Of a DNA stretch of 64,000 bases, positions 3,107-60,997 are shown piece after piece (position 1 is the first letter of the stretch; the number at the start of each line of letters is the position of its first letter). Both the position numbers and the translations under genes were made by a program. The DNA is taken from assembly GCA_016185545.1 (NCBI GenBank), contig JACPNJ010000005.1, positions 167,754 to 231,753 of the forward strand. The letters run 5' to 3'. The notes beneath the pieces were generated by a model. It was not told where the DNA came from. It saw only the letters and a program-made list of their open reading frames with translations, and searched no databases. This stretch comes from Candidatus Yanofskybacteria bacterium. Lineage in GTDB: Bacteria; Patescibacteriota; Minisyncoccia; 2-02-FULL-40-12; IGHO2-01-FULL-4-A.

Positions 3107-4768
3107 CTAATCAAGTATTTTAAAAGGTTCGTCTTTCTTTTGCGGCTTTGGCGGCGGGGGTATCAGCCCGCCTTGCGGCAAACCGCCTAGCATCGGCGTT
3201 GTCGCTTGAGACATTGTTCTCTTGGGCTCGTAAAGACGCTCGCCGGGAGCATGTTTCTTGTACTCCAACTCTATGCTTCTGCGGATATTTAGCAGAAGAC
3301 TTACAATTGAAAATTTCATCGGATATATTTTGAAAACATTCAGATAACCCTTAACGAAAAAATAAAAAATGAAATAAAGTTTTGCCAGAGGCAGTTTGAA
3401 CAGAAATTCGGCAAATTTCCTGGAATATAAGAACGGGAAAGCAAGAAATACCGTTCCCAGCAACGACATGTTGCTTTGCATTCTTTTTTCCAGTGGGGTA
3501 AAACAATTTAACGGACTCTCGTTTTGATAACTTGCGTTAAGATTACCGAAATCAGAATAATCAAACCAGCCGTTTTCTACCACATAGTCGGAAAGTTCAC
3601 AGCCCGGATAAGGATAAACGGGCGAGAATTCTCCGAAAGTAACTTTGGATTTTATATTCAACTCCAAAGAATCAAAATCGTAATCAATCGCCGTTTTTCC
3701 CTGCTCGGTCATTACTTCACTTTTTATCGGAATGGCCAAGATTGAATTGGCAAAAGTTTTGACGCCCATTTCATTGCAAAGCGCGAAGGCCTCTTCAATT
3801 TCAGGCCGGGTCATGTGGCGTTTTATGATTTTTTCTCTGATATAATCGTTGCCCGACTCAATGGACATTGTTAATGAATGAAGGCCGGCTTTCTTCAGGG
3901 CGGTAAGATTCTCTCTGGTCAAAACGTTGCATCGCGTTAAGCAGAAAAACGGCAGGCCGACTTCTTGAGGGTAAATTTCGGCAAATTCAGCAAGCCAAAA
4001 ATCAACGCTCCGGCTTAAAATAAACATATCGTCATAAAATTTAATGAACTGGGTAGGATACCTGTGTTTTAATTCTTTAAGTTCGGCGCATAATCGTCTA
4101 GGAGAATATCTTCTGTATATCGAACCCAAACCGCGCTGCTGGATGTTCGTTTTGGGTTCAAAACAATAAGTACATTCAAACGGACAGCCCCACGAACTCA
4201 TGAAACAGCGCATTGGAAATTTGCCTAAATGCGTTTTGCTGTAAACAATCTCTCTGTCATAAAAAGGTAGCCCATCCAGAGGGTGAGTTAATTTGTGTCT
4301 GAAACGATTCCGATTCGCTTCCGTTTCGTTTTTCCATTTGGAAAGCCAAGTCTCTCTGGTAAAAATATTAGGAATATTACCGGCATCTTCTCCGGCCTGT
4401 AAAGCTTTAAGCAGTTTTGGCCAAGCAACATCGCATTCGCCTACACCAATCGCGTTTAAATCGCTTTCTTCAATAATATCGGGATTGAAGGTCGGATGAG
4501 GCCCACCCATAATTGTAATAATATTTTTGGAATAATCCTTTACTTTGTCGTTAGCTTTCAGAAAAAATTGCTGTTCGCCAGTTTTTACACTGCAATGTGC
4601 GACTATATCCGGTTTGATACGCTTTAATTCTTCGCCCAAGTCGTCCTGACTCAAAACGGTTAAAAATGTCGCGAATCCTTCCCGTTTTGCCAAGGCTGAC
4701 ATCAGCATTACACCCATCGGGTCAATGTAATCAACGTTATTTACAACAAAAAGAATTTTGTCGGCCAC
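3107..4768 (-). CDS. B12-binding domain radical SAM enzyme (class B radical-SAM methyltransferase-like)
   Basis: N-terminal B12-binding-like fold, then a CxxxCxxC cluster (WGCPFECTYCFEP); 553 aa with a Pro-rich C-terminal tail. Confidence 0.75.
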   Translation of the reverse strand: MADKILFVVNNVDYIDPMGVMLMSALAKREGFATFLTVLSQDDLGEELKRIKPDIVAHCSVKTGEQQFFLKANDKVKDYSKNIITIMGGPHPTFNPDIIEESDLNAIGVGECDVAWPKLLKALQAGEDAGNIPNIFTRETWLSKWKNETEANRNRFRHKLTHPLDGLPFYDREIVYSKTHLGKFPMRCFMSSWGCPFECTYCFEPKTNIQQRGLGSIYRRYSPRRLCAELKELKHRYPTQFIKFYDDMFILSRSVDFWLAEFAEIYPQEVGLPFFCLTRCNVLTRENLTALKKAGLHSLTMSIESGNDYIREKIIKRHMTRPEIEEAFALCNEMGVKTFANSILAIPIKSEVMTEQGKTAIDYDFDSLELNIKSKVTFGEFSPVYPYPGCELSDYVVENGWFDYSDFGNLNASYQNESPLNCFTPLEKRMQSNMSLLGTVFLAFPFLYSRKFAEFLFKLPLAKLYFIFYFFVKGYLNVFKIYPMKFSIVSLLLNIRRSIELEYKKHAPGERLYEPKRTMSQATTPMLGGLPQGGLIPPPPKPQKKDEPFKILD

Positions 4769-5193
4769 ATTTCACCTTCTCTCCAGCCATAATTTAATTT
4801 TCAAAAAACTTGTTATTGAGAGTAACACGAACTATCATATTTATCAAATTCTTCAGGGGTCAAAAATTACAAACCAAGCTCACCCCCCTAATTTTTCTTC
4901 CTGTATCATGCCTTCATTACAAATTGCGGTCACTGGCTAAATTGTCGGACACAGACCAGTTCTCCGTTTGCCGCTTGCCCGCCTAAATTTTGCTTCGCAA
5001 AACTTGGGCGGGCTGACGCGTTTTCCGACTAGTCCTAGTGTTACCCGACAATTCTTAACGCCAGTTCCCTTATTTGTATAATCGGCAGATAATGTCAGAA
5101 AAATAAGGGGGTTCCGCTTAGGTTGGGTTTGTAATTTTTTAATTTTAGAGTAATTTTGGAGATTAATTTTGGAGATTCAATCTCCAAAGAGTG

Positions 5194-5354
5194 GGCTTGG
5201 TGGGCAATGCCTCATAGCACCGTCAAAAGAGTGGGTTGCACGGTTTGCGAGCAGTATAATAGTAAAACACTGCGAGCAAAATCCACGCTTTTGACGGAAT
5301 GCAGTCCGCTCGCTGGGCGGACAAATGGTGCTATGAGACATTGCCCACCAAGCC
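5194..5354. repeat. long imperfect inverted repeat / structured non-coding element
   Basis: 'gggcttggtgggcaatgcctcatagcaccgtcaaaag' pairs with 'cttttgacgg...ggtgctatgagacattgcccaccaagccc' (~29 + 10 bp arms); internal hairpins; tandem 'aattttggagatt' x2 just upstream; no ORF. Confidence 0.55.
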
Positions 5355-5391
5355 CCGTTTAGCATTTATTAAAATGTTGTATAATAAAAAT

Positions 5392-6497: not shown

Positions 6498-6833
6498 TTA
6501 TGGGTTACCAAGTGCGTTCCAAAATTTTGCACTCATCTCTTTAGCACTAATTTTAGGATAAACCCCAATCCTGCCGTAATGGAGTATCAAAAAAGTACGA
6601 TCATCACAAGGAATTACTTTTAAATTTTCTGGTCGAACATCATTTTCATCTAAAAACCTCATTAGTCTATTACTTTTAACCCCCGAGGAATTCAGATCAT
6701 TGACATCCAAGAAAAAACCGTGCCACTTTATTTTTTTTCTATTTTTCTCTGCGACTTTTCCATTACCCAAACTTTTTTCTTTCATAGTTTGTTTCACTGT
6801 TTGTTTCACTTTTTCCTCTTTATTCAATTGCAA
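6498..6833 (-). CDS. hypothetical protein (TTG start)
   Basis: 111-aa ORF lying directly downstream (on the minus strand) of promoter-like repeat R1. Confidence 0.4.
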   Translation of the reverse strand: MQLNKEEKVKQTVKQTMKEKSLGNGKVAEKNRKKIKWHGFFLDVNDLNSSGVKSNRLMRFLDENDVRPENLKVIPCDDRTFLILHYGRIGVYPKISAKEMSAKFWNALGNP

Positions 6834-6917
6834 AAGACCAATCTGCCGGGGCTTTTATGGCTCCCCAGCATCATAAGTAGGTTAGCATACGAGCCTATGG
6901 CGTGTCAAGAGTAAAAG
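6818..6917 (-). promoter_or_regulatory. repeat R1 copy 1 (promoter-like cassette)
   Basis: ~95-bp sequence duplicated at 8404-8500; the minus strand carries TTGACA-N18-TAACCT. Confidence 0.5.
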
Positions 6918-7924
6918 GTAATGTGCAAGCACATATGGCGGTTTTCTCCTAACATGGAGAAATGGCCATATCTATGTCAAAAACAATCAAAGAAGAACGT
7001 TTAAGATGGGTACAGCCCATAGTCAGAAAAGAGGTAAAGTTGGTTGATGCGGCAAGGGTTTGTCTCTACGGCAAGCGTACTCTTGAGAGATGGGTTGCCG
7101 CATACAAAAAGAATGGTGAAAGCGGTTTAGAACCCAGGTCTACAGCACGCAAGACCCAAAACAACGAGACACCGATTCGTATTAAAGAGCATGTAATTGC
7201 GCTCCGCAAACAAACCCATAAATGCGCTTTGAAATTGTACTGGCACATGAAGAAGGAGGGATTGATTGTTCCAGCAAGAACCATCGGTAAAATCCTTAAA
7301 CAAGAAGGGCTGGTGCGAAAGTATCGGGTTAAACGAGTAAAGTATAAATATCTCAAAGCCACGCTCAAACCAGGCGAACTTGTGGAAATAGATGTTAAAT
7401 ATGTTCCCGGAGCTGTTGCGGGACGCCAATACTTTCAATATACCGCTGCCGACAAGGCTTCGCGGTGGAGACATCTTGAAATTTATGACGAGCAGGTCAA
7501 TCATCACAGCGTTTTGTTCCTTTCAGAAATAATCAGAAGGGCGCCATTTCATATTTTAGCAATCAAAACGGACAACCATTCAACATTTACTAATTACTAC
7601 ACCGGTACCAACAAAAGAAGCGACCTCTTGGTAAAGTCGCTTCATGCACTGGATATTGCCTGCCGAGAATATGGCATCAGACATTATTTAATTGACCCGG
7701 GCAAGCCGGCACAGAATGGCACAGTAGAACGAAGCCATCGTGAAGACCAAGAAAAGCTTTATGATAAACATTCGTTCGTTTCTGAAAAAGAGTTGCGCTA
7801 CCGCGTCAGATTGTGGAATATGTACTACAACAACCTTGAACACTGCGGGTTGAACGGAAAAACGCCAAATGAGTTTATCGCAAATTATCAACTAACCCAT
7901 CCGCCAAATGTGCCTGCCTAGAAC
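6918..7924 (+). mobile_element. IS481-family insertion sequence
   Basis: ~1 kb; terminal inverted repeats 'aatgtgcaagcacatatggcgg' vs the reverse complement of 'ccgccaaatgtgcctgcctagaac'; single DDE integrase-type transposase; interrupts an R1-R2 cassette that is intact at 8404-8529; short A-rich target duplication. Confidence 0.75.
6962..7921 (+). CDS. IS481-family transposase (integrase catalytic core, DDE)
   Basis: N-terminal HTH followed by an rve core with D (VEIDVKYV), D (IKTDNHSTF) and E (NGTVERSH). Confidence 0.85.
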   Translation: MAISMSKTIKEERLRWVQPIVRKEVKLVDAARVCLYGKRTLERWVAAYKKNGESGLEPRSTARKTQNNETPIRIKEHVIALRKQTHKCALKLYWHMKKEGLIVPARTIGKILKQEGLVRKYRVKRVKYKYLKATLKPGELVEIDVKYVPGAVAGRQYFQYTAADKASRWRHLEIYDEQVNHHSVLFLSEIIRRAPFHILAIKTDNHSTFTNYYTGTNKRSDLLVKSLHALDIACREYGIRHYLIDPGKPAQNGTVERSHREDQEKLYDKHSFVSEKELRYRVRLWNMYYNNLEHCGLNGKTPNEFIANYQLTHPPNVPA

Positions 7925-7957
7925 AAAAAAACAAAACCGCCAAATGGCGGCAAATCA
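7925..7957 (-). terminator. repeat R2 copy 1 (rho-independent terminator)
   Basis: minus strand: ccgccatttggcgg hairpin followed by ttttgtttt. Confidence 0.6.
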
Positions 7958-8042
7958 GTTGGTTAGTAATTTTTGATAAAGTAGGCCCAAGCGAAGTCGT
8001 AAAGACACTCCATAATAAAAAACGAGGTGTTTCCTCGTTCAA

Positions 8043-8390
8043 TTAATTCAACCTGTTTACTATAAAAGTTTTATCTAGTTTTTCTCCTAACATGGGGGAA
8101 TATTTTTTTGTTTTCCAGAAACCAGGTTTTTCTTTAGAAACCTTCCACCTGCTACCATTAGATAAAGTGACTATCCAATAATCTATTTCCCTAGTTATTG
8201 CAAATTGAGGGACGGTTGTTTCTATAAAACTATATGACTCAATTTTTGTTATGCTGTATTTGGAGTTTTCTAGAAGTACTCTTTGTATTACTTGACCGTT
8301 TCTCACAAAATAATAAAATGCTGGAATAGCAAATATAAGAAAAAATATCAGCATTTTTGCCCAAGGATTAATACTATTAAGTTTTAACAC
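8043..8390 (-). CDS. hypothetical membrane-anchored protein (GTG start)
   Basis: 115 aa with an N-terminal hydrophobic helix; downstream of R1 copy 2. Confidence 0.4.
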   Translation of the reverse strand: MLKLNSINPWAKMLIFFLIFAIPAFYYFVRNGQVIQRVLLENSKYSITKIESYSFIETTVPQFAITREIDYWIVTLSNGSRWKVSKEKPGFWKTKKYSPMLGEKLDKTFIVNRLN

Positions 8391-8403
8391 AATATCCTCC
8401 TTT

Positions 8404-8500
8404 TTTATTCAATTGAAAAAGATCAACCTGCCGGGGCTTTTATGGCTCCCCAGCATCATAAGTAGGTTAGCATACGAGCCTATGGCGTGTCAAGAGTAAA
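8404..8500 (-). promoter_or_regulatory. repeat R1 copy 2 (promoter-like cassette)
   Basis: near-identical to 6818-6917. Confidence 0.5.
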
Positions 8501-8529
8501 AAACAAAACCGCCAAATGGCGGCAAATCA
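8501..8529 (-). terminator. repeat R2 copy 2 (terminator; contiguous with R1 here)
   Basis: identical to 7925-7957; follows the stop of 8549..8863 on the minus strand. Confidence 0.6.
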
Positions 8530-8548
8530 TTTTTCTTTTCAAGATGAT

Positions 8549-8863
8549 TTACACCAATCTTTTTCCAATAGCCTTGACGGTGCGCTCAAGAATCTTAATC
8601 CTATGCTGCAAATCTAAAATATCACCTTCTTCAAAGCGAGTTAAGACCTCATAGATATCATCAATTTTAGCTTCTATTTTACCCGTACGAGATTGAAATT
8701 CTTCCTTTGTCACCATTCTCTGTTCCACTGATTCAAAACCCCTGGCCACCATATTTGCCAGATCATCAAGGGTTACCCCTTTTTTATTCTTGTTTGGCAT
8801 ATATGTAAATATATCTAGTGGTCGCCAACTTGCAAGATTGACAAGTAAGTATATGTTTTGCAA
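8549..8863 (-). CDS. hypothetical protein
   Basis: 104-aa ORF; likely start at the internal Met MPNKNKKG; coiled-coil-like. Confidence 0.4.
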   Translation of the reverse strand: MQNIYLLVNLASWRPLDIFTYMPNKNKKGVTLDDLANMVARGFESVEQRMVTKEEFQSRTGKIEAKIDDIYEVLTRFEEGDILDLQHRIKILERTVKAIGKRLV

Positions 8864-14558: not shown

Positions 14559-15272
14559 ATGATAGATACAGCAATAATCTTAGCGGGTGGAAGAGGGCTA
14601 CGACTAATGCCCCAAACGGCCGAACAGCCAAAAGCTATGGTTAAAGTTTTGGGTCGCCCGATGATTGAATGGATAATACTTTGGCTTAAAAAAAATAAAA
14701 TAACGAACATAATCGTAAGTGTAGATTACAAAAAGGTAAAGTTGATGAAATATCTGGGAAATGGTAAAAAGTTTGGAGTAAATATATGCTATAACGACCA
14801 CGCGGGAGCGTCAGAAACAGGAGATGCATTTCGCAGTGTCTTTTTAAATATAAAATCTTTGCCAGATGTTTTTGTAGCGATGAATGGGGATCAAATTACA
14901 AATCTTCCAATCAAAAAACTTGTTGCCCACCACAAGAAACATGACCCGATAGCAACCATAGTGACCTGCCCTATAAAAAGTCCATACGGAATAGTCACTC
15001 ACAACAACCTTAATCACTTGGTCAAAGATTTCAAAGAAAAGCCTATTCTGCCGAATATTTACATGAATACCGGTATTTACATTTTCAACAAAAAAATCAT
15101 TAAGTATCTGCCGCAAAAAGGGTCAGTAGAGAGAACGACTTTCAAAAAATTAATCAGAGAACAAAAACTCAAAGCTTATATTCATAGGGGACTATTCGTC
15201 ACGATAAACGACAACAAAGACCTGCAAGATACTGAAAGTATTTTAACCAAATCAAAAATTAATTTTTTATGA
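14559..15272 (+). CDS. sugar-1-phosphate nucleotidyltransferase (GDP-heptose/mannose-1-P guanylyltransferase-like)
   Basis: N-terminal AIILAGGRGLRLMP nucleotidyltransferase motif. Confidence 0.7.
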   Translation: MIDTAIILAGGRGLRLMPQTAEQPKAMVKVLGRPMIEWIILWLKKNKITNIIVSVDYKKVKLMKYLGNGKKFGVNICYNDHAGASETGDAFRSVFLNIKSLPDVFVAMNGDQITNLPIKKLVAHHKKHDPIATIVTCPIKSPYGIVTHNNLNHLVKDFKEKPILPNIYMNTGIYIFNKKIIKYLPQKGSVERTTFKKLIREQKLKAYIHRGLFVTINDNKDLQDTESILTKSKINFL

Positions 15273-15274
15273 AT

Positions 15275-15381
15275 CCCGTTAGAAATTAATCCTAACGGGA
15301 ATAAAAGGTATTTTATTAATATAAGATTGTGAGCTTGCCACCTGTTTAAAGTGGTGGACAGTCCGCAAAACTTCTAACGGG
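15275..15381 (+). repeat. family A palindromic junction element, copy A1
   Basis: terminal inverted repeats cccgttagaa.../...acttctaacggg; inner stem ccacctgtttaaagtggtgg; sits between the TGA of the upstream gene and an ATG. Confidence 0.8.
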
Positions 15382-15669
15382 ATGAATCCCGTACGAACCA
15401 AAACGTTCTATTATGCATATGTAATACAAAGCAATAAAGATGGGCGTTTTTATACAGGTTTTACGGTGGATTTACGGAAGCGCCTTAAGGAGCATAATGA
15501 AAGTAAGTATATTTCTTGGACAAAAGGAAGGGGACCGTTTGACCTAATTTATTATGAAGCCTGCAAAAACAAAGAAGATGCCAGGCAAAGAGAAAAATAT
15601 CTTAAAACAGGACGAGGCAAGCGCTTTATTAAAGAAAGATTAAGGCGCTTCCTGGTTCGTACGGGATGA
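15382..15669 (+). CDS. GIY-YIG nuclease superfamily protein (YhbQ/COG2827-like, 95 aa)
   Basis: YYAYVIQSNKDGRFYTGFTVDLRKRLKEHN = GIY-YIG motif block; the ORF runs exactly between the 12-bp inverted repeats. Confidence 0.8.
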   Translation: MNPVRTKTFYYAYVIQSNKDGRFYTGFTVDLRKRLKEHNESKYISWTKGRGPFDLIYYEACKNKEDARQREKYLKTGRGKRFIKERLRRFLVRTG

Positions 15670-18258: not shown

Positions 18259-18260
18259 AT

Positions 18261-18381
18261 CCCGTACGAGACACAATGAGTAAACACACAAAAATGGCCG
18301 GTGGCCGGAGTGTCTTTACTGGATAAAATGATAAACTAACTAGGCACGGTTGCGACAGAGTCGCAACCTGTCTCGTACGGG
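18261..18381 (+). repeat. family B palindromic junction element, copy B1
   Basis: terminal inverted repeats cccgtacgagaca.../...tgtctcgtacggg; internal ggttgcgacagagtcgcaacc hairpin; TGA-element-ATG placement. Confidence 0.8.
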
Positions 18382-21348: not shown

Positions 21349-22440
21349 TTACCCTTTTTTATTTAGATTACTTAATATAACATCAATTTCTTTTTTAGCC
21401 ATGTCAAGTGTTATATTTTTCACATCGCCATCGGTACCCTTGAGAACGCGATTAAGTGATCCTGGCGGGCGGTGATACTCTCGCTCATCGGTGGGCCCAA
21501 CTAAGACAAGGTTAGCCACATCAAAGGCATCAGCCGTTACCATTGGGCCGGAATCATTGCCTATGACAAGATCACACTTTGAAATCGCGGCCTTAAATTC
21601 ATCTAGGTTTTGATTAAGCAGGTTAACCGCCGGAACGCCGTCTAAAACCGCGAGCATTGCTGTTATCGGCCCCTCATCTTTACCGGCACCAACAAGCAAA
21701 ATCTTAGCGTTTTGTTCTTCGTAAAAAAATTTAGCTAATTCAGCAAATCTTTCCGCCGGCCACCAGCGCTCGGGCACCGCGCCACCCGGCGCAAAAGCAA
21801 CAATAAAATCGTCCACCGACATATTATTTTGAGTGAAAACATTGTTGATTTTATTTTCAGCTTCTTTGGAAAAATATAACCGGAAATGAGCATCGCCGGT
21901 ATTGGCATTAATTGGCTCCAGCAACTTAAGATATTGTGGCGGGACATATTGACCGGTATAAAACGGCGATGTGATTGCAAATGTTTTTAGAATTGAATAA
22001 GAAACCGAAGTATCTCCTTTGCCGCTCTCGAGTGAAAAAGTAGAAATGGTTTTAATGCCGGCAAGGTATAGCAGAGCAAAACCCATTGTACTGCCAAGAT
22101 TGGCCAAACAAGCAAAATCAATTTTTTCTTTTTTTAATAGTTTAACGACGGTCCAAAAGTTATTTTCGTAATTTATATATTTATCTATATCCGGGTTGTG
22201 TCTGATCACTTCTTCTACCCGACCAGCACCAATAACATATAGTCTGCTATCTGGATACCTGGTCTTAATGGCCCTGAACATGGGCGTGATATAAACAACA
22301 TCGCCCATGTGCGGTTTCCAGCGCAAGATAAGAATCCTTTTGGGGTTTGAGGTAATTTTTTTTGCTCTGCCGCGGAATAAATAATATAAAAGACACAATA
22401 ATAAACTGCCAAGATTTGTAAATTTACTGGATAATTTCAT
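21349..22440 (-). CDS. family 9 glycosyltransferase (ADP-heptose:acceptor heptosyltransferase-like)
   Basis: ILILRWKPHMGDVV and LVIGNDSGPMV GT9 motifs. Confidence 0.75.
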   Translation of the reverse strand: MKLSSKFTNLGSLLLCLLYYLFRGRAKKITSNPKRILILRWKPHMGDVVYITPMFRAIKTRYPDSRLYVIGAGRVEEVIRHNPDIDKYINYENNFWTVVKLLKKEKIDFACLANLGSTMGFALLYLAGIKTISTFSLESGKGDTSVSYSILKTFAITSPFYTGQYVPPQYLKLLEPINANTGDAHFRLYFSKEAENKINNVFTQNNMSVDDFIVAFAPGGAVPERWWPAERFAELAKFFYEEQNAKILLVGAGKDEGPITAMLAVLDGVPAVNLLNQNLDEFKAAISKCDLVIGNDSGPMVTADAFDVANLVLVGPTDEREYHRPPGSLNRVLKGTDGDVKNITLDMAKKEIDVILSNLNKKG

Positions 22441-22547
22441 CCCGTTAGAAGTTTTGCAAACCGGCCACCACTTTGAACAGGTGGCAAACTCACAAATTTT
22501 ATATCAATAAATGCCCTTTATTCCCGTTAGGATTAACTTCTAACGGG
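22441..22547 (-). repeat. family A element, copy A2
   Basis: near-identical reverse complement of A1. Confidence 0.8.
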
Positions 22548-22549
22548 AT

Positions 22550-23407
22550 TCATTTCCTTAAAGTTACGCAAGCCACTGCTCTGGCGGCGGCCACCCCGTC
22601 ATCGTTAATTTTTTTGCCGGTACGGATGTTAAAATATTCCAAACCATCGCATTGCTCCTGTTCACTTATCTGCCAACCATCTTTTGAGTACTTATAGAAA
22701 ACAGTATTAAATTCGGCGGCGCCGAAAGCATCGGCAACTTTTTGCACCATTTGTGAATTAAACTGCTGAAAAAAACCATGGTTTTCGTATCGGCCGAACG
22801 GTACGGTAATAAAAAGTGTTCCGCCCGGCTTCAACATTCTTTTCATTTCAAGAACCGCCGGCAGATAATCGCCGCTGTTTTCCTTGAACCGGTTTTCACC
22901 GGTATATATTTGCGTGTTATCCATTCCTATATGCTCAAGAGTGGAGACACAGGAAATTATATCAAAATTATCGCTTTTGAATGGTGCTTTTCTTATATCG
23001 CTATAAACATACGATACTCCTTTATTCCAAAAACAATTTGATTCCGGATTGAGATTCATTATAAAAAGATTCTTGGGGACAATATTTTTATGTTCAATAA
23101 TTTCCTTAAAATTAAGGGCCGAACCGGCATCCAACATTTCCACACGGTCACCACCGATTTGGGAAATAACCCATGGAATTTCAATGATTCTTTCATCAAT
23201 TCCAATGCCATATTTTTCGGGCAACTTCCCATTATTTTTAAACAGTCTCGATAGTTCATTATTTTTAAGAACTGCGCCAATTTCACGCCATTTATATTCA
23301 AAATAACCCCTGCTCCAAGGCTTGCGGCCGTGCAATTCGTAGGATAATAAATTTCTTCTAGCAATTAAACTTTTTGCAAAATATCTTAATTTTTTGTTAA
23401 ACCCCAT
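22550..23407 (-). CDS. SAM-dependent methyltransferase
   Basis: class I methyltransferase fold (LDAGSALNF...KPGGTLFITVP). Confidence 0.6.
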   Translation of the reverse strand: MGFNKKLRYFAKSLIARRNLLSYELHGRKPWSRGYFEYKWREIGAVLKNNELSRLFKNNGKLPEKYGIGIDERIIEIPWVISQIGGDRVEMLDAGSALNFKEIIEHKNIVPKNLFIMNLNPESNCFWNKGVSYVYSDIRKAPFKSDNFDIISCVSTLEHIGMDNTQIYTGENRFKENSGDYLPAVLEMKRMLKPGGTLFITVPFGRYENHGFFQQFNSQMVQKVADAFGAAEFNTVFYKYSKDGWQISEQEQCDGLEYFNIRTGKKINDDGVAAARAVACVTLRK

Positions 23408-23512
23408 CCCGTTAGAAGTTTTGCAGACCGTCCACCACTTTAAACAGGTGGCAAGTTCACAAGCCTTATATCAATAAATACTTTTTCCCCGTTAGGCTTA
23501 ACTTCTAACGGG
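23408..23512 (-). repeat. family A element, copy A3
   Basis: same termini and interior as A2. Confidence 0.8.
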
Positions 23513-23513
23513 A

Positions 23514-24725
23514 TTAAGCAATACAAATGAAAACTTTACTAAAAATCTCGTTAATCGGCTTCTGATATTTTATCACGAAAAGTTCGCCGTTGTCGTAAAT
23601 TTGGAACACGGTTTTATTGAGGCCCAAGAGCGGTTCCCAAATTTTATTATAAAACCAGCTTGCTTTGGTAAACCGGAAATCGTCATTGTTTGAATAAATC
23701 TGGTTTTCGGAATTGTAGTGGTAGTTGAAGTCCCTTTCGGTTATAAACCCGAGCTGCCTGTTACGCCGATGATATGACAGAAAACAATTTTCAAGAAAAT
23801 CCACTTGGGAAAAAGATATTATCATATCATCCGGATTGACATTCATTTTTTTAACGGCCAAAGCGATTTTGAAATTATTAAATAATTTGCGCGGTTCCAA
23901 TGAATAAAAGATTCTTGGAAAAAATTTAATCTCATCAAAGTACTCCCTTATATCGTCTGGTTTTACAAAATCCCAGCGAGGATGGCGGGAAACGACCAAG
24001 TTTATCTTGGTACTAGGCAAAAAAGACCTTATAAAACGCGCCAGGGATACCGCACTAACCACAAACTCCGTATGCGAAAGGACAAACCAAACTTTACCGT
24101 GAAAATCGGAAAATAGTTCGCGTATATTACGCTCAAAAAGTTCATCTTTTGCGGTGGCTATTCTATTTTCAACAAGCTCTTGTTTGAGGTCGGTTATAAA
24201 AAGTGAGCTTGGCACTTTTGCAAAATATGTTTCGGTAGTCTCAAAGTACTTGTCATTATAGACATTTTTAAAAAGCCGATAAAATAGGTAAGCATTCAGA
24301 CCGAAGCTATAGGCGGAAACCGCCGATGTTGAGTTCACGGCAAAAACACATTTAATTTTTGGAAGATTTTGCCACAAAAACAGTTCAGCCGTTGTTTTGT
24401 CTTGGATTAAATTAAAACCATTTAAGTTTAAAAATAATTGTTTTTTTTCATCAGATGGATGCGGTTTATAATAAAGATCGTACCCACCAAAATTCCGGCG
24501 AATATAATCAAGGCACTCGTTGCATTTAGCAACATAAAACTCCTTGTCTGCAAAACCTGAAGCCAGAATGCCTTTCATATCACTGCCCATAAAAACAACC
24601 ATTTTCGCGCTAAAACCGCTTTTAGAATCCGGTTCTTTTTTGTTTAAACTCAACAAATGAGGCAGTGAAATCCTGACGACATTATTTATTTTTTTATTTA
24701 TACCGACAAATTTTCTTATATCCAT
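23514..24725 (-). CDS. hypothetical GT-B-like transferase with a KPHP motif (paralog of 36483..37706)
   Basis: shares CLDYIR...YDLYYKPHP..FLNL with 36483..37706; HP motif as in CMP-sugar/CDP-alditol transferases. Confidence 0.45.
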   Translation of the reverse strand: MDIRKFVGINKKINNVVRISLPHLLSLNKKEPDSKSGFSAKMVVFMGSDMKGILASGFADKEFYVAKCNECLDYIRRNFGGYDLYYKPHPSDEKKQLFLNLNGFNLIQDKTTAELFLWQNLPKIKCVFAVNSTSAVSAYSFGLNAYLFYRLFKNVYNDKYFETTETYFAKVPSSLFITDLKQELVENRIATAKDELFERNIRELFSDFHGKVWFVLSHTEFVVSAVSLARFIRSFLPSTKINLVVSRHPRWDFVKPDDIREYFDEIKFFPRIFYSLEPRKLFNNFKIALAVKKMNVNPDDMIISFSQVDFLENCFLSYHRRNRQLGFITERDFNYHYNSENQIYSNNDDFRFTKASWFYNKIWEPLLGLNKTVFQIYDNGELFVIKYQKPINEIFSKVFICIA

Positions 24726-24845
24726 CCCGTATGAGACAGGCTGTGATTCTGTCGCAACCGTACCTAGTTAGTTTATCATTGTATCCCGTAAAGACACTTC
24801 GGCCACCAGACCTTCTTGTGTGTTTACCCTTCGTGTCTCGTACGG
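24726..24845 (-). repeat. family B element, copy B2
   Basis: cccgtatgagaca...tgtctcgtacgg; the interior matches the reverse complement of B1. Confidence 0.8.
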
Positions 24846-24871
24846 AATCCATGAGTAAATCTCCGAAAGCC

Positions 24872-27483: not shown

Positions 27484-28584
27484 ACGAGTCATCATTCTCA
27501 TTATATTAGCATGGTCTTCTCTGGCAATCTCGTATTTGCTTTTATTCAACTGGCTTGGATCATCCCGTACGAGACAGGTTGCGACCCTGTCGCAACCGTG
27601 CCTAGTTAGTTTATCATTATCTCCAACAGGGACACTCCGACCACCGGCCTTTTTTGTGTGTTTATTCGTCGTGTCTCGTACGGGATCATCCCTAGGAAAC
27701 ATATTGGATTTAAAACCGCATTCAACGCCCAATTGACTTAAAATCTTAAGAGTACTGTCATTGTAAGAATTGGCAGGATGGGCCATGTCCACGGGCGGCC
27801 TGCCGCAAACTCTTTGTATGTGTTCATAATTTTTTTGATACTCTTCTTGCTGTCGTTCAAAAGGAAGTTCGGCAAGCATCATGGGGTGTGAATATGAATG
27901 CAGTCCGATTACATGGCCTTGCCTATTTAAGTAAGCAAGGTTTTCATTTGACATCCATATGTTTTTAGAAAGATCGGCCAAATTCAACCCTTGGTCTTGA
28001 ATAATCGCATCCATAATTATTTCAAATTCCTCACGGCTTAACACGCGATCCCTAATCAAACGAAAGCGCATGTCATTGGTTGAGTAAAACGGGAAAGTCT
28101 TGGAATACCTTACCATATCGGTCTCTTCTAAAACTTTCCTGGCATTATTTCCAAATTTTGATTGAAAAATTTTATCAAAAAAAATATTGTAAAAGTCATC
28201 AATATCTTTAAAAAACTTAGAGCGAAAAACCCGATAAATTTCAAATTTGCCAAGGCCGCCCTCAAATACACTGGAATAGACGAACCAAAATGCTTTTAGG
28301 TTGTACTTGTCCAAAACCGGCAAGACAACATCAAATTGACATAATAGCCCATCATCCAGGGTTATGCAAACATCCCGATTGGTTAATTGGTTCGCCCCCA
28401 ATCGCTTAAGCCATTCTTTAGGATCAAGTATCCGATCTAATCCTACAAACATAAGAATGGCTTCAAAATCCGACATTGATATCGAACCTTGCCCTTTGTA
28501 ATGTTTCCGTTCGTCATGAAAATGATGGAACATTATCCCGTGAGCAACCGAACTGAGATATTTTTTTTTAGATAATTCGCTCAA
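27457..28584 (-). CDS. polysaccharide deacetylase (NodB-homology domain); the 3' ~230 nt of the ORF reads through elements B3 and A5
   Basis: ITLDDG NodB motif and HSYSHP His motif; the frame stays open through the repeat elements, so the true C-terminus is uncertain. Confidence 0.6.
   Translation of the reverse strand: MSELSKKKYLSSVAHGIMFHHFHDERKHYKGQGSISMSDFEAILMFVGLDRILDPKEWLKRLGANQLTNRDVCITLDDGLLCQFDVVLPVLDKYNLKAFWFVYSSVFEGGLGKFEIYRVFRSKFFKDIDDFYNIFFDKIFQSKFGNNARKVLEETDMVRYSKTFPFYSTNDMRFRLIRDRVLSREEFEIIMDAIIQDQGLNLADLSKNIWMSNENLAYLNRQGHVIGLHSYSHPMMLAELPFERQQEEYQKNYEHIQRVCGRPPVDMAHPANSYNDSTLKILSQLGVECGFKSNMFPRDDPVRDTTNKHTKKAGGRSVPVGDNDKLTRHGCDRVATCLVRDDPSQLNKSKYEIAREDHANIMRMMTRPVRGTTGN
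27564..27684 (-). repeat. family B element, copy B3
   Basis: cccgtacgagaca...tgtctcgtacggg; in tandem with A5. Confidence 0.8.
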
Positions 28585-29725
28585 TTTTTTTAATATCTAA
28601 ATAATCCTCGGAAGAAAAACTTAAACCCGAGGTAATTTTTTGAAAGCCCTCGTAAAAACGCGGCTCACTGACAAGGTTATGAATATTGGCAGTTGGTACA
28701 AGAATCAACATTTCATTATTAACCCATGCTTCTTTATTGGAGTCGTTGGAACCCATAAGAGCTTCGTGCAGTTTGTCGCCGACACGATCTCCAATGTATT
28801 TTATTTTTATCACAGCCCCAGAAGACCGCTGCTTCAGTCGTGGATGATTGGGTCTTCTGGGGCTGGATTCCGCCCCACGGTCAAGCCGCCAAGCTTGACT
28901 GTGGGTGATGGTACCACGGGCTTGGCCGTGGGGCTCCATTTTTTTTCCAGAGTAATATTTTTTTATAAATATACTGGCTAGATCTCCCAAGCGGATTGAC
29001 GGCATTTTCAAAATAAAAATTTCACCGCCCGAACAAAGCTGGGCCGCTTTCAGAGTCAAACTAACGGCTTGTTTTATGGACATGAGAAAGCGGGTCGCGT
29101 CTTTGTTGGTAACATTAATCGCGCCGCTGGCTTCTACTTGTTTTACCCACATCGGCAGTACTGAACCATCGGCCCAGGCAACATTGCCGAATCTTACACA
29201 GGCAAGCTTCATTTTATCTCCCAGAAAAAAACTGGAATTTATAAAAAGCTTCTCCATCATAAGCTTGGAAGCGCCAAGCACATTTAAGGGGTTGGCAACT
29301 TTATCCGTGGAAATGGCAATAATTTTTTCAACACCGGCGTGCAAAGCCGCGTCAATAATATTATGTGAACCGACAATGTTAGTTTTCATCGCTTCTGACG
29401 GATTATACTCGCAAAACGGAACATGTTTTAAGGCGGCGGCGTGAAAAACTATGTCTACATTTTTAAAAGCAAGATGTAAACGCTCTTGGTCTCTTATGTC
29501 TCCAATCAACATCCTTAAGTTTTTTGGGTAACGAAGCGCCTCCAATAGGTGGTATTGGCGTGTTTCATTTCTGGATAAAACCCTGATCTGCTTCGGCTTG
29601 GACTTTAAAAGCTGGCGAACCAGTTCTGCGCCAATACTACCAGTGCCTCCAGTTACCAAAATGGTTTTATTTTGAAACTCGTTAATCATAGAAAACAACT
29701 TAAAAATGCAAACCTCAAATCTCAA
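28568..29725 (-). CDS. UDP-GlcNAc 4,6-dehydratase (PseB/FlaA1/CapD-like), with an in-frame 43-aa insertion
   Basis: ILVTGGTGSIG...VLSRNE...HAAALKHVP...YIGDRVGDKLHEAL; 385 aa versus ~335 for homologs. Confidence 0.75.
   Translation of the reverse strand: MRFEVCIFKLFSMINEFQNKTILVTGGTGSIGAELVRQLLKSKPKQIRVLSRNETRQYHLLEALRYPKNLRMLIGDIRDQERLHLAFKNVDIVFHAAALKHVPFCEYNPSEAMKTNIVGSHNIIDAALHAGVEKIIAISTDKVANPLNVLGASKLMMEKLFINSSFFLGDKMKLACVRFGNVAWADGSVLPMWVKQVEASGAINVTNKDATRFLMSIKQAVSLTLKAAQLCSGGEIFILKMPSIRLGDLASIFIKKYYSGKKMEPHGQARGTITHSQAWRLDRGAESSPRRPNHPRLKQRSSGAVIKIKYIGDRVGDKLHEALMGSNDSNKEAWVNNEMLILVPTANIHNLVSEPRFYEGFQKITSGLSFSSEDYLDIKKIERII
28811..28939 (-). repeat. GC-rich triple-hairpin element inserted in-frame in a coding sequence
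   Basis: 129 nt at ~62% GC versus ~40% background; stems gccccagaagacc/ggtcttctggggc, cccacggtcaagc/gcttgactgtggg, ccacgg/ccgtgg. Confidence 0.6.
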
Positions 29726-30150
29726 AATGTAATTTAAAATTCCAAACTATTTTCTGCCTTTCATGGTTAGTACGCCAGCGCCAATAATTTTAGAAATTTC
29801 TTCGGCTTCTTTAAGCAATGGGTTAATTTGATTTCTTAAATTAGGCGTACTTTCAATGAGCAAAATCAACCAATATTTTGTCTCATTAGAACTCTTAAGA
29901 GCAATCTGAAAAAATTTTAAATAATCCAATTTTGAGCTAGCGGCTCGAGCTTCGAAAACGTTGGCTCCAACTGAAGTTGCAGATCGAATCAGTTGATCGG
30001 CTATCGCCCACAAATTCCTACTTTTTCTTACTTCTCCACAAAGTTTAATTATTGCTAAAGAAAAATCAATAAGCCGTTTATTAAATTGCATTTTAAAATT
30101 TACATTTTCATTTTGCATTTTGAGATTTGAATTTTGAATTGGGTAATTTT
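29703..30150. mobile_element. inverted-repeat-bounded module carrying a four-helix-bundle (23S rRNA IVS-type) protein gene
   Basis: AT-rich inverted-repeat arms with core caaatctcaaaatg (29703-29746; 30092-30150, reverse complement) flank the ORF. Confidence 0.55.
29747..30118 (-). CDS. four-helix-bundle protein (23S rRNA intervening-sequence protein family)
   Basis: WAIADQLIRSATSVGANVFEA...YLKFFQIALKSSNETKYWL is characteristic; the first 9 codons lie in the inverted-repeat arm, so the probable start is MQFNK (~30091). Confidence 0.7.
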   Translation of the reverse strand: MQNENVNFKMQFNKRLIDFSLAIIKLCGEVRKSRNLWAIADQLIRSATSVGANVFEARAASSKLDYLKFFQIALKSSNETKYWLILLIESTPNLRNQINPLLKEAEEISKIIGAGVLTMKGRK

Positions 30151-35680: not shown

Positions 35681-35768
35681 AAATTCAAAAAGCAAATCTC
35701 AAATCTCAAAATCTAATTTATAATTAAAAACTTTCATTTTGGATTTTGAGATTGAAATTTTGAATTTT
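35681..35768. repeat. 'caaatctcaaaat' AT-rich palindromic hairpin (empty copy of the 4HB-module inverted repeat)
   Basis: gcaaatctcaaatctcaaaatc ... gattttgagattg. Confidence 0.65.
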
Positions 35769-36476
35769 TTTCTCTATTTTCTTTTTGTGGGCAAATATAG
35801 TTTCCGCCAAAATCCAATCTTCTATGCCGTCCAAATCAATTGAGCGCCATTTCGGACAGACAACGCCGCGGGTATCGGCATTAATAAATTTTCTGGTTTT
35901 TATAAATTCATTGATTCTTATCATATAGACCATACAGCCATTGAGCAAATAACCGGCGGGCCAAACCTGCCTATTGGTGCTTTCTTTTTCAATTTTATTT
36001 GCCAAAATTAATTTGCCTTGGTCATCTAAATGATAAAGACGCGGATGCGTGTCACATATTGTACAGACGGATCTGACCTTGGAATCTAGCATCCGTTTCC
36101 AGCATTTTTTGATATCGGATATTTCTCTCAATGGCGAAGTTGTTTGTAAAAGAGTTATTATATCCGGCTCATAACCATCCTCTTCTTTTAGTCTTTTAAG
36201 TAGAAGTAAAACGGCGTCAACGACAGGCGATTTATCACCAGCCAACTCCTTGGGCCTTAAAAACGGCACCTCGGCGCCGTATTTTCTGGCCACTGCGGCG
36301 ATTTTCTCATCTTCTGTATCTACAACAATCCTATCAAACAAGCCGGTTTCCCTGGCTTGCTCTATGGCATGTGCAATTAGCGGTTTACCATGAAAAATTT
36401 TGATATTCTTGCCGGGTATGCCTTTAGACCCGCCTCTGGCCGGAATAATGGCTAAATTTTTTATTGATTTTTGCAT
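35724..36476 (-). CDS. neuA: acylneuraminate cytidylyltransferase (CMP-nonulosonic acid synthetase, NeuA/LegF/PseF-like)
   Basis: AIIPARGGSKGIPGKNI...TSPLR; the last ~14 codons are encoded by the palindromic repeat. Confidence 0.8.
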   Translation of the reverse strand: MQKSIKNLAIIPARGGSKGIPGKNIKIFHGKPLIAHAIEQARETGLFDRIVVDTEDEKIAAVARKYGAEVPFLRPKELAGDKSPVVDAVLLLLKRLKEEDGYEPDIITLLQTTSPLREISDIKKCWKRMLDSKVRSVCTICDTHPRLYHLDDQGKLILANKIEKESTNRQVWPAGYLLNGCMVYMIRINEFIKTRKFINADTRGVVCPKWRSIDLDGIEDWILAETIFAHKKKIEKKIQNFNLKIQNESF

Positions 36477-37706: not shown

Positions 37707-37715
37707 GAGTAGAAT

Positions 37716-37800
37716 AATTTAAACCTCAAATCTCAAAACTCAAAATTTAAATTTTGAATTTTAAATTACATTTTGAGATTTGAGATTTGCATTTTGAATT
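37716..37800. repeat. 'caaatctcaaaat' AT-rich palindromic hairpin (second empty copy)
   Basis: aacctcaaatctcaaaactcaaaattt ... cattttgagatttgagatttgcatttt. Confidence 0.65.
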
Positions 37801-59291: not shown

Positions 59292-59296
59292 AGCCT

Positions 59297-59330
59297 AATT
59301 CAAAATGCAAACCTCAAATCTCAAAATTAC
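59297..59330. repeat. single arm of the 'caaatctcaaaat' repeat family
   Basis: caaaatgcaaacctcaaatctcaaaattacag. Confidence 0.5.
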
Positions 59331-60997
59331 AGACTTGCAGTTTTTCTGCAATCATAGATCCGAGCCGGAATTTTACCAGAATATTCCTCATAAACCTTTC
59401 TACATGACGAAAAATATTTTACATAAGGGCTGTCGGAATGCAAGCGAGGAATTTCAATTATTAAATAATGGCCTTTGAAATTTTTAAGAATATCGGTATA
59501 ACTTGACTCAAATTTCGGCGCGGCATAAAGTCGTCTTTGATATTTGTCTATTTTTAACAATTCGCGGTAGCCGATGTTGTTATAAGTGATTACTTTTTCT
59601 ATATCCGGATCGTTTTTTATAAAGTCAACGGCATTTTTTAATACTACAGTGGGGCTACCGTTGATCTTGCCAAATAGGTACTCTTCAACAAAAATACCGT
59701 TATAGAAAAATCCAAGAATTAGAATTATCGCTAAAAATGACTTTTGCCATTTTGTCTTTATAAACGACAAAATTACCAGAATTAACGCTATTAGCCAAGC
59801 CAATGCCATAAACAACCAGGAAACATAAAAACCCATCGGCCCCGAACCGCCGATGAACGGAAACAGGAAATTCCATTTTAAACTCAAAATTCGGTTAAAC
59901 CATTCTGTTTTGGGATATAGTGCTGGTACAAAATGAGGCAAAAACTGCAGGAAAAACAAAGCCAATCCGATAGCACAACCAAACACTATGACCCTCCACT
60001 TGTTATAGACGCTCTGCCCTTCAAAAATGTTGCTCACAACAACACCTGAAATAACAGACAAAGGCACAATCATGAATTGAAAATAACGATCCAGCGCGCC
60101 AGATGAAAAATCAAAAAGTACCAAATAAAAAATCAGGCCGAGGATAAGAAAAATTATAAAAAGACGCAATTTTCTCGCCAAATCTTTTGTTAAAAATAAA
60201 AGAGGCAATAAGAGAAGCGGCGAACTGTAAAGCAGGGCTTTGAAAAACTGAATTGAAATCTGGAGATAATTTCTGTCAGAAAAAACGACAAAATGCTTCC
60301 AATAAGAAAGTGGCCTTGAAATGTCGGCATTAGGCAAAATATGCATAATACCCAAAATCAATAAAAATAATGAGGCAAGTATGCCAATACCAATTGAGGC
60401 AAACTTAAACAATTTCCGACGGGATAACAGGTGTTTTTGCGAATACAAAAAATCCAAGGCAATGGCGCCAAGCGCTATAACAAAGCTAACTTTTGTTAAG
60501 GAACCGAGAAAAATAAAAACCGCCAAAACGCTCCCCAAAATCAGTTTTTTCTTTAAATTTATGCTTTCTCTCCATTTATAATAAAAAAGGGCTGAAAGTA
60601 AAAAAAAGAAGGGCAAAACCTGCCCATCGGTATCAATCATCAAAGAAGCCAAAACGCTAAAAAAACCGGCGCTAAAAAATAAAACGCTCCAAAGAGCGGC
60701 TTTTGTGGAAAACCTGCGTTTTACCAGAACAAAAAGAAGCCAAAAATTAGCAATGCCGAACAAAAACGGCAAATGGCGCAAATTATCTTCACCAAACGCC
60801 TTTACCGCCACAAAAAAAATTAAGGGGGTAAGCGGCGGATGAACAAACCCGCCTAAACCCCCTAATCCCGCACTGCCAAAGCCAGGCCAAACCCGTTCAT
60901 CCTGATGATATGGTAAGTCCAAACCTGGAATTCTTAAAATCAAAAACAAAATAAAAATTATAACCAGTATTGCACGCGTATTCATCTTTTGAAGCAT
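59327..60997 (-). CDS. GT-C fold membrane glycosyltransferase (ArnT/PMT, GT39/GT83-like)
   Basis: ~12 transmembrane segments; DE motif in the first loop (HQDERVWPG). Confidence 0.6.
   Translation of the reverse strand: MLQKMNTRAILVIIFILFLILRIPGLDLPYHQDERVWPGFGSAGLGGLGGFVHPPLTPLIFFVAVKAFGEDNLRHLPFLFGIANFWLLFVLVKRRFSTKAALWSVLFFSAGFFSVLASLMIDTDGQVLPFFFLLSALFYYKWRESINLKKKLILGSVLAVFIFLGSLTKVSFVIALGAIALDFLYSQKHLLSRRKLFKFASIGIGILASLFLLILGIMHILPNADISRPLSYWKHFVVFSDRNYLQISIQFFKALLYSSPLLLLPLLFLTKDLARKLRLFIIFLILGLIFYLVLFDFSSGALDRYFQFMIVPLSVISGVVVSNIFEGQSVYNKWRVIVFGCAIGLALFFLQFLPHFVPALYPKTEWFNRILSLKWNFLFPFIGGSGPMGFYVSWLFMALAWLIALILVILSFIKTKWQKSFLAIILILGFFYNGIFVEEYLFGKINGSPTVVLKNAVDFIKNDPDIEKVITYNNIGYRELLKIDKYQRRLYAAPKFESSYTDILKNFKGHYLIIEIPRLHSDSPYVKYFSSCRKVYEEYSGKIPARIYDCRKTASL

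Follow-up and report, generated by a model that had tools for sequence, protein, structure and literature searches.

A duplicated, putative terminator-promoter unit in a Candidatus Yanofskybacteria genome and the IS481-like element inserted beside its -35 hexamer

A 64,000-nucleotide stretch of a Candidatus Yanofskybacteria genome (assembly GCA_016185545.1, contig JACPNJ010000005.1, positions 167,754 to 231,753; hereafter the window, in whose own coordinates all positions are given) contains a short repeat, made up of the segments R1 and R2, that is contiguous at one site and interrupted at another by an insertion sequence (IS) resembling IS481, and each copy precedes a different small open reading frame (ORF). 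The locus raises two questions: whether the repeat is a portable promoter module, as a first-pass annotation of the window had proposed, or a local duplication, and why the IS lies where it does. Considering all of the evidence, the locus as a whole is probably best explained by local reuse of a promoter in two copies, followed by insertion of the IS at a promoter-linked site.

We first describe the repeat. R1 was found at 6819..6916 and at 8404..8501 (98 nt at both sites, 97% identity), and R2 at 7926..7960 and at 8498..8532 (35 nt, 97% identity), all on the minus strand. Because R1 and R2 overlap at 8498-8501, the intact copy forms one contiguous 129-nt unit at 8404-8532, and its R1 shows the target site of the IS in the unoccupied state; the other copy, at 6819-7960, is split by a 1009-bp IS481-like element. 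The spacing between the two copies is 1585 bp for R1 and 572 bp for R2, and the difference of 1013 bp indicates that the inserted DNA consists of the 1009-bp IS plus a 4-bp duplication. Outside the inserted DNA, the copies were identical across 6843-6916 plus 7926-7957, with the three R1 mismatches all close to the ribosome-binding site, and an R1-derived 30-mer occurred exactly twice in the window versus 0 expected in shuffles. The first-pass description of a unit that is contiguous once and split once by an IS481 element of about 1 kb was therefore confirmed by the repeats and the 1009-bp IS. The copies had also been called tandem, which proved incorrect, since they are direct repeats with a 572-bp period and one of the small ORFs (ORF A) lies between them.

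Read on the minus strand from the stop codon of the neighboring ORF C, the module consists, in order, of GCCGCCATTTGGCGG, TTTTGTTTTTT, ACTC, TTGACA, 18 nt ending in TG-c, and TAACCT. Past TAACCT it continues with a hairpin (CTGGGGAGCC-ATAAAA-GCCCCGGCAG), followed by AGGAGG in the copy ahead of ORF A or GAGG in the copy ahead of ORF B, 5 nt and a GTG codon. The boundaries of the repeat match functional boundaries, running from a terminator through to a start codon.

The IS occupies 6917..7925 (plus strand, 1009 bp) and is bounded by a left inverted repeat at 6917-6941 and a right one at 7901-7925, 25 bp each. Its ends, GGTAATGTGCAAGCACATATGGCGG and CCGCCAAATGTGCCTGCCTAGAACA, match as inverted repeats at 18 of the 25 positions, and they are flanked by a 4-bp target-site duplication, AAAA, at 6913-6916 on the left and 7926-7929 on the right. 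Both the end positions and the duplication were defined by comparison with 70 related copies, and this refined the earlier description, in which inverted repeats of about 24 bp stood beside an A-rich target duplication. The transposase is encoded by a single ORF of 315-319 aa without a frameshift; the gene in the window (6974-7921, plus strand, 315 aa, MBI2670074.1) has its stop codon within the right repeat. Pfam domains rve (E = 2e-9), rve_3 (6e-11), HTH_28 and HTH_32 were detected in the protein. The best NCBIfam model was IS481 (NF033577; 194.1 bits, E = 3.4e-57, a score that falls below the curated cut-off of 224 bits), with ISNCY_2 next at 55.8 bits, and plasmid relatives sharing up to 33% identity with the transposase are annotated as members of the IS481 family. 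Judged by its sequence, the element is a distant lineage of the IS481 family, and the family assigned in the first-pass annotation was retained, albeit with a best model scoring under its cut-off.

Even at E <= 10, the N terminus of the transposase matched only generic helix-turn-helix (HTH) families, and a sigma-70 region-4-like domain, considered as a candidate for this segment, was rejected because nothing more specific was matched. No solved structure related by sequence to the transposase was found, and blastn of 6800-8560 against plasmids at distant settings yielded no match. A Logan contig from SRR12113422 carrying the same IS stops at exactly the point at which a branch in the k-mer graph is required, provided that the sample contains both R2 contexts. 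Positions 1-12 of a Logan contig from SRR12113422 (L001) contain a variant of the left repeat, GTGCACACACAT in place of GTGCAAGCACAT at window positions 6923-6934, which points to either another IS copy or a strain variant within the sample.

To return to the repeat itself, a genome-wide search for R1/R2 had been named in the first-pass annotation as a check on the portable module, and we ran it on the window, the fetched loci and sequence collections. No R1-R2 copy beyond the two was present in the 64-kb window or turned up among the 444 kb of fetched loci. Look-ups of exact proteins yielded only short Logan contigs identical to the window; L087, which reaches 4.3 kb past the window start, has no R1-R2 either. 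One exact R1 24-mer was absent from 185,579 species-representative genomes (GTDB), and two exact R1 24-mers were absent from JGI metagenomes. The first-pass annotation had itself named R1/R2 being unique to this locus as the outcome that would refute it, and by that standard the lack of any further copy in these searches favors a local duplication.

It could nevertheless be argued that R1-R2 is a multi-copy terminator-promoter cassette that spreads through the genome and brings different small genes under common control. In line with this idea, the copies share 97-100% identity over 129 nt despite unrelated downstream ORFs, the edges of the repeat coincide with the functional edges described above, and families of reused promoters have been documented in many genomes (PMC3488235). 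However, only two copies exist in the 64 kb, as neighbors; none was found in the 444 kb of related loci, the GTDB representatives or the JGI metagenomes; and the unit has no terminal inverted repeats pairing its ends (in the repeat listing of the window), is not flanked by a duplication of its own and is not associated with a recombinase. With two neighboring copies and no transposon-like ends, the designation as a portable promoter module was not upheld, and we regard a spreading cassette as unlikely.

Putative mobile promoters have been defined by at least 80% identity over 50-100 nt upstream of non-homologous genes in one genome, with families starting at two members (Matus-Garcia, Nijveen and van Passel 2012; PMC3488235). 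R1 falls within this definition, with 97% identity over 98 nt ahead of non-homologous genes, whereas the window unit differs from such promoters in including an upstream terminator and the whole leader up to the start codon, and in that its members are adjacent rather than dispersed, with no mobilization mechanism evident. We read the unit as a two-member putative mobile promoter family that is neither an autonomous nor a dispersed mobile cassette. A miniature inverted-repeat transposable element (MITE) or another non-autonomous transposon was also considered and rejected, as there is no inverted repeat pairing the ends and there are only two copies.

What the unit may do was then read from its parts. 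In a consensus scan, both copies of R2 scored as terminators on the minus strand (stems 8523-8508 and 7951-7936, tail TTTGTTTTTT), in agreement with the first reading of R2 as a clean minus-strand terminator. In both copies a 6-bp stem with 5 GC pairs and a 4-nt loop is followed by TTTTGTTTTTT; the intact stem-loop lies at 8508-8523 and the split one at 7936-7951, both on the minus strand. Intact R2 lies 26 nt past the ORF C stop codon and combines a GC-rich stem-loop, a T-tract and a location downstream of a gene, the features by which intrinsic terminators are recognized. R2 is thus a predicted terminator, and its intact copy would terminate the ORF C transcript. In the split copy, the IS sits within the T-tract, which is restored by the duplicated AAAA (7926-7929).

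R1 contains TTGACA-N18-TAACCT on the minus strand, as had been noted, and this arrangement is present in both copies. The -35 hexamer TTGACA lies at 8488-8493 in the intact R1 and at 6903-6908 in the split R1, where it is 8 bp from the IS end; the -10 element TAACCT lies at 8464-8469 and 6879-6884, respectively, also on the minus strand. The putative promoter combines a perfect -35 with an 18-nt spacer, and its -10 matches TATAAT at T1, A2 and T6 only. An extended -10 TG (8471-8472 in the intact R1, minus strand) is located within the spacer, one base upstream of TAACCT. These features are followed by the leader hairpin (8428-8453 in the intact R1 and 6843-6868 in the split R1, minus strand) and, directly outside R1 on the same strand, by AGGAGG at 8395-8400 ahead of GTG 8390 in the intact copy and by GAGG at 6816-6819 ahead of GTG 6810 in the split copy. 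With this arrangement, R1 is a predicted sigma-70-type promoter with the extended -10 element TG-c-TAACCT.

Alternatively, R1-R2 could encode a structured regulatory RNA, either a small RNA or a riboswitch-like leader, and be conserved for that reason. The hairpin CUGGGGAGCC-AUAAAA-GCCCCGGCAG is indeed identical in both copies, but R1-R2 matched no Rfam family at the gathering threshold or at E <= 1 (save a chance-level microRNA match), its fold stability is not significant, two near-identical copies offer no covariation, and no homologous leader was found in other genomes. Such an RNA therefore appears quite improbable as the explanation for the repeat.

The question of why the IS lies at this promoter was approached through its relatives. 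At least 261 matches were found in species-representative genomes and 80 of them were fetched; most are from Patescibacteria. The ends of these elements are sharply conserved (GGTAATGTGC... and ...CCTAAAACA), the elements are about 1007-1009 bp long, and the 4-bp duplications were identical in 40 of 56 related sites. The target survey covered 69 distinct sites from about 50 assemblies, whose flanks were followed from the left IS end outward along the strand opposite to that of the transposase gene. The left flank of the relatives proved to have a common layout, namely IS, 4-bp duplication, N4, TTGACA. At positions 9-14 outside the left end, the counts among the 69 sites were T66, T65, G64, A59, C55 and A44, and TTGACA at the 8-bp offset was exact in 38 sites and had one mismatch in 17, which together make up 55/69, while 14/69 sites had 2 or more mismatches. 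Flank positions 1-8 were nearly information-free, with an information content <= 0.10 at the duplicated positions 1-4, and the information content across TTGACA decreases from T toward A, a profile also seen in -35 logos.

Further promoter features were found beyond the hexamer. TAnnnT at a spacer of 16-18 nt was present in 70% of the sites versus 12% of shuffled flanks, at least 5/6 matches to TATAAT in 53% versus 6%, and an extended -10 TG in 42% versus 6%. In 55 of 63 sites, an ORF of at least 60 aa was directed away from the IS, with a median distance of 85 nt between the IS end and the ORF start. The right flank of the related sites, by contrast with these signals on the left, had no positional information; a terminator as the target of the IS was rejected, since a terminator-like site occurred in only 10 of 59 right flanks and no positional signal was seen on that side. 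Taken together, these data suggest that sigma-70 promoters are the targets of the IS lineage, which would enter them at about -40 to -43 and in the orientation that leaves the transposase gene and the promoter divergent.

A metagenome-assembled genome (MAG), MFD01231.bin.1.77, with contigs up to 1.26 Mb, contains at least 14 near-identical related IS copies (L039-L048, L050, L057, L058 and L060), from which it follows that the lineage is active and not restricted to small Patescibacteria genomes. The flanks of the 14 copies in this genome are unrelated to one another, and all have TTG at the same offset. The window IS obeys the same rule, its left flank reading IS, TTTT, ACTC, TTGACA-N18-TAACCT, and since the intact copy at 8404-8532 also has TTGACA, the hexamer predates the insertion. 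Because most of the IS relatives sit 8 bp from TTGACA, just as the window IS does at R1, the reading of R1 as a promoter gains independent support, and the R1 pattern is consistent with that at the 69 IS-marked promoters.

It must be asked whether the IS could have come to lie between R2 and R1 by chance or through purifying selection, with a transposase that has no preference for promoters. The 14/69 sites with 2 or more TTGACA mismatches are compatible with this, and so is the dense coding of Patescibacteria, which makes surviving insertions intergenic. Selection, however, cannot yield the fixed 8-bp TTGACA offset in 55/69 sites, the single orientation, the -35-like information profile or the flat right flank; the 14 near-identical copies in one genome all follow the rule, so we give this explanation only a slight chance. 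Since the fixed 8-bp offset and the single orientation are not producible by survival of harmless insertions, the lineage must be selecting its site mechanistically. The transposase presumably reaches the -35 box either by reading TTGACA directly or by recognizing DNA that is bound and bent by RNA polymerase. As a tentative proposal, which we hold to be possible but would not yet favor, this IS481-like lineage, widespread in Patescibacteria, picks its site by the promoter, with the HTH reading TTGACA or the transposase docking on the RNA polymerase holoenzyme (sigma region 4 or the C-terminal domain of alpha). In a full-text literature search of limited coverage, no IS was described whose target is set by the -35 hexamer, and we know of no bacterial IS with such a target.

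Finally, it is most improbable that the repeats are recombination sites of an integron-like array of small promoterless ORFs, with sites of about 126 nt as in the VCRs (Vibrio cholerae repeats) of Vibrio, because, although the 572-bp period, the small orphan ORFs in the same orientation and the repeat of about 129 nt resemble chromosomal cassette arrays, the unit lacks the end-to-end imperfect palindrome (R''-L''/L'-R' symmetry) of attC sites (fold z = -1.24), carries a terminator and a promoter, exists in only two copies, which lie upstream of ORFs A and B with none after ORF B, and no integrase was seen in the ORFs up to about 3 kb away from the repeats.

Local promoter reuse followed by IS insertion could have proceeded as follows. 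An ancestral module would have preceded one mini-gene, and Campbell-type or unequal homologous recombination, which is one possible route, may have brought ORF A next to a copy of the module, leaving the direct repeats that flank ORF A with their 572-bp period. After this duplication, the IS481-like element entered the ORF B copy and duplicated AAAA, at a non-random site located 8 bp upstream of the -35 hexamer. The two parts of the module on either side of it should still be functional, as AAAA would keep the T-tract on one side and the -35 and -10 elements are intact on the other, and the IS would occupy a low-cost intergenic site. If transcription starts where the promoter elements place it, the leader stem-loop would be close to the 5' end of the RNA.

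Several observations weigh against this account. The scans of the collections used exact 24-mers and would miss diverged copies, and the search of the genome itself covered 64 kb of a 339-kb contig, so that dispersed copies may exist elsewhere in the MAG. The R1 promoter was not called by the consensus scan, because TAACCT matches only 3/6 positions of the -10 consensus, and the promoter is a prediction from sequence. When the whole 129-nt module was folded, it was no better than shuffled sequence (z = -1.24). Part of the -10 enrichment at the IS sites could be due to harmless insertions having survived, and not to recognition of a whole promoter. It is possible that neither ORF A nor ORF B is a genuine gene, given that they have no homologues and that ORF B is left unannotated by NCBI. 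Lastly, R2 contains a 14-mer whose likeness to the inner repeat of the IS is unaccounted for by promoter reuse and subsequent insertion.

This 14-mer, AAAACCGCCAAATG, is identical to the family-consensus inner inverted repeat (as in the related copy L049), 8 bp from the IS end, and a 10-mer of R2, CCGCCAAATG, is identical to the inner part of the right repeat of the window IS. The resemblance involves 7933-7946 and 8505-8518 in the R2 copies and 7897-7910 and 6932-6945 at the right and left repeats, respectively. Within the window, CCGCCAAATG occurs only in the right repeat and both R2 copies, and the left repeat has an inverted form with one mismatch. A remnant of an IS end was rejected as the origin of R2, since the similarity is confined to 14/17 nt of the inner repeat, with no outward extension. 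IS911, of the IS3 family, inserts next to sequences like its own inverted repeats, and the match between R2 and the inner right repeat through CCGCCAAATG recalls that behavior. By analogy, the R2 motif may provide an extra attraction for the transposase, or it may be an after-the-fact coincidence. In contrast to IS911, only the window and L070 carry such a flank motif among the 70 sites, and it is not a general determinant of the site. In L070, a complete second 31-nt right inverted repeat is located directly outside the IS right end, in tandem, at about 3940-3971.

Another match links the IS to its surroundings. Positions 8080-8101, at the 3' end of ORF A, match 6942-6963, a hairpin over the ribosome-binding site of the transposase gene, along 22 nt, 16 of which are exact; the consensus scan marks the copy in ORF A as terminator-like when the plus strand is read. 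The first-pass annotation had reported that a 16-mer of the IS left end recurs at 8078-8093, and while the repeat is real, its position is 8080-8095 and it deserves less weight than it was given, since about one such repeat is expected by chance in 64 kb (4.1e9 position pairs on both strands versus 4.3e9 possible 16-mers). A remnant of an IS end was rejected here too, as there is no similarity beyond the 22 nt and the frequency is at chance level. The 22-nt match is probably due to chance.

Members of the IS481 family are about 0.95-1.3 kb long and have terminal inverted repeats and short direct target repeats; the window element, with 1009 bp, 18/25 matching positions in its inverted repeats and a 4-bp duplication, lies within these ranges. 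Compared with IS481 of Bordetella pertussis, for example, it shares a size of about 1 kb, a single ORF for a DDE (rve) transposase with HTH domains at its N terminus, terminal inverted repeats of about 25 bp that match imperfectly, a short target duplication and the transposase stop codon inside the right repeat. It differs from the family in scoring under the NCBI curated cut-off, in sharing no more than 33% identity with plasmid-borne members and in that its left end begins with GG, not TGT. The targets differ as well. IS481 is reported to target NCTAGN, whereas the lineage described here targets the position 8 bp upstream of TTGACA in a fixed orientation.

Other elements are also tied to expression signals. 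IS900 and IS901, of the IS110 family, insert next to ribosome-binding sites, and yeast Ty3 and Schizosaccharomyces pombe Tf1 integrate at or upstream of promoters. The window lineage shares with them a site and an orientation that are fixed with respect to an expression signal, and a low-cost "safe haven" in a compact genome, but differs in enzyme class or host factors.

The genes around the repeats form a low-GC islet of minus-strand mini-genes (ORFs C, A and B) between a HAD phosphatase gene and a thiamine pyrophosphate (TPP)-enzyme gene. ORF A (8043..8390, minus strand) encodes 115 aa from GTG 8390 at a GC content of about 30% and is annotated by NCBI as a hypothetical protein (MBI2670075.1, HYX20_02955); it and the transposase (MBI2670074.1) are both on the 339-kb contig of the Candidatus Yanofskybacteria (Patescibacteria) MAG. 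An N-terminal hydrophobic stretch in ORF A resembles a membrane helix, and the consensus scan found a terminator-like hairpin, separate from R2, at 8020..8040 on the minus strand (GAACGAGGAAACACCTCGTTT, then TTTATT). ORF B (6498..6810, minus strand, GC about 35%) encodes 103 aa from its GTG. It had initially been delimited as 6498..6833 with a TTG start, but this was revised, as gene callers use GTG 6810 behind GAGG; it was called from this codon in independent Logan assemblies and is absent from the NCBI annotation. GTG 6810 is most likely the start, in preference to TTG 6833, which lies inside R1. ORF C (8549..8800, minus strand) encodes a small coiled-coil-like protein of 83 aa from ATG 8800.

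ORF A and ORF B are unrelated to each other (BLASTP E = 0.67 over 6 residues), in accordance with the earlier statement that two unrelated small ORFs follow the R1 copies. Neither had a homologue besides themselves among 5.8 billion proteins, and neither matched NCBIfam, PADLOC or PHROGs entries or any credible Pfam family, the sole Pfam match of ORF B being at chance level (DUF3258, E = 0.055, below the cut-off). An AlphaFold2 single-sequence model of ORF B had a pLDDT (predicted local distance difference test) score of 56, too low for a fold search. The GC content of the two ORFs, 30-35%, compares with a background of 41-43%.

Other repeats and structures were noted in the window. Three intergenic copies of a repeat family, "Y", of about 125 nt and 82-91% identity lie at 18259-18381 (+), 24726-24852 (-) and 27560-27686 (-); they end in ACGGG-ATG-A, which contains the start codon at 18382, and fold with a 15-bp closing stem, ATCCCGTACGAGACA / TGTCTCGTACGGGAT, that encloses two hairpins. 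Family Y had no Rfam match and could be either a MITE or a leader RNA not described so far. A second intergenic family, "Z", of about 118 nt, lies at 15269-15386 (+), 22436-22553 (-) and 23405-23515 (-), upstream of genes in a glycan-biosynthesis cluster, and its ends are related to those of family Y (ATCCCGT...ACGGGAT). Alternative structures are suggested for family Z, because its CCCGTTAG can form pairs with one or the other of two CTAACGGG segments. The segment 4770-5390, about 600 nt, is without a convincing ORF, and a 163-nt near-perfect rod-like hairpin at 5193-5355 (+) has 29-nt arms that are 97% complementary (-100 kcal/mol, z = -12.2) and matched no Rfam family. An AT-rich family, AAATGCAAACCTCAAATCTCAAAATG..., is present in direct and inverted intergenic copies at 29697-30140, 35681-35769, 37713-37800 and 59296-59347.

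The R1-R2 duplication is in itself a small and fairly ordinary case of promoter reuse, and it shows an orphan mini-gene gaining a complete expression module in a streamlined genome. The part worth following up, beyond the repeat itself, is the target rule of the IS. A fixed -35 offset across about 50 assemblies points to a promoter-selecting transposase, and the rule would explain how the IS persists in genomes with almost no spare DNA. The 69 independently marked promoters also yield an empirical Patescibacteria consensus, TTGACA, 17 nt, TGnTAnnnT, for a group in which promoters have hardly been mapped, and the rule suggests a compact, laboratory-testable system for promoter-proximal DNA insertion. 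If integration is indeed guided by promoters, the lineage would be a bacterial counterpart of Ty3 or Tf1, and in uncultivated bacteria each IS copy would act as a natural tag for a real promoter.

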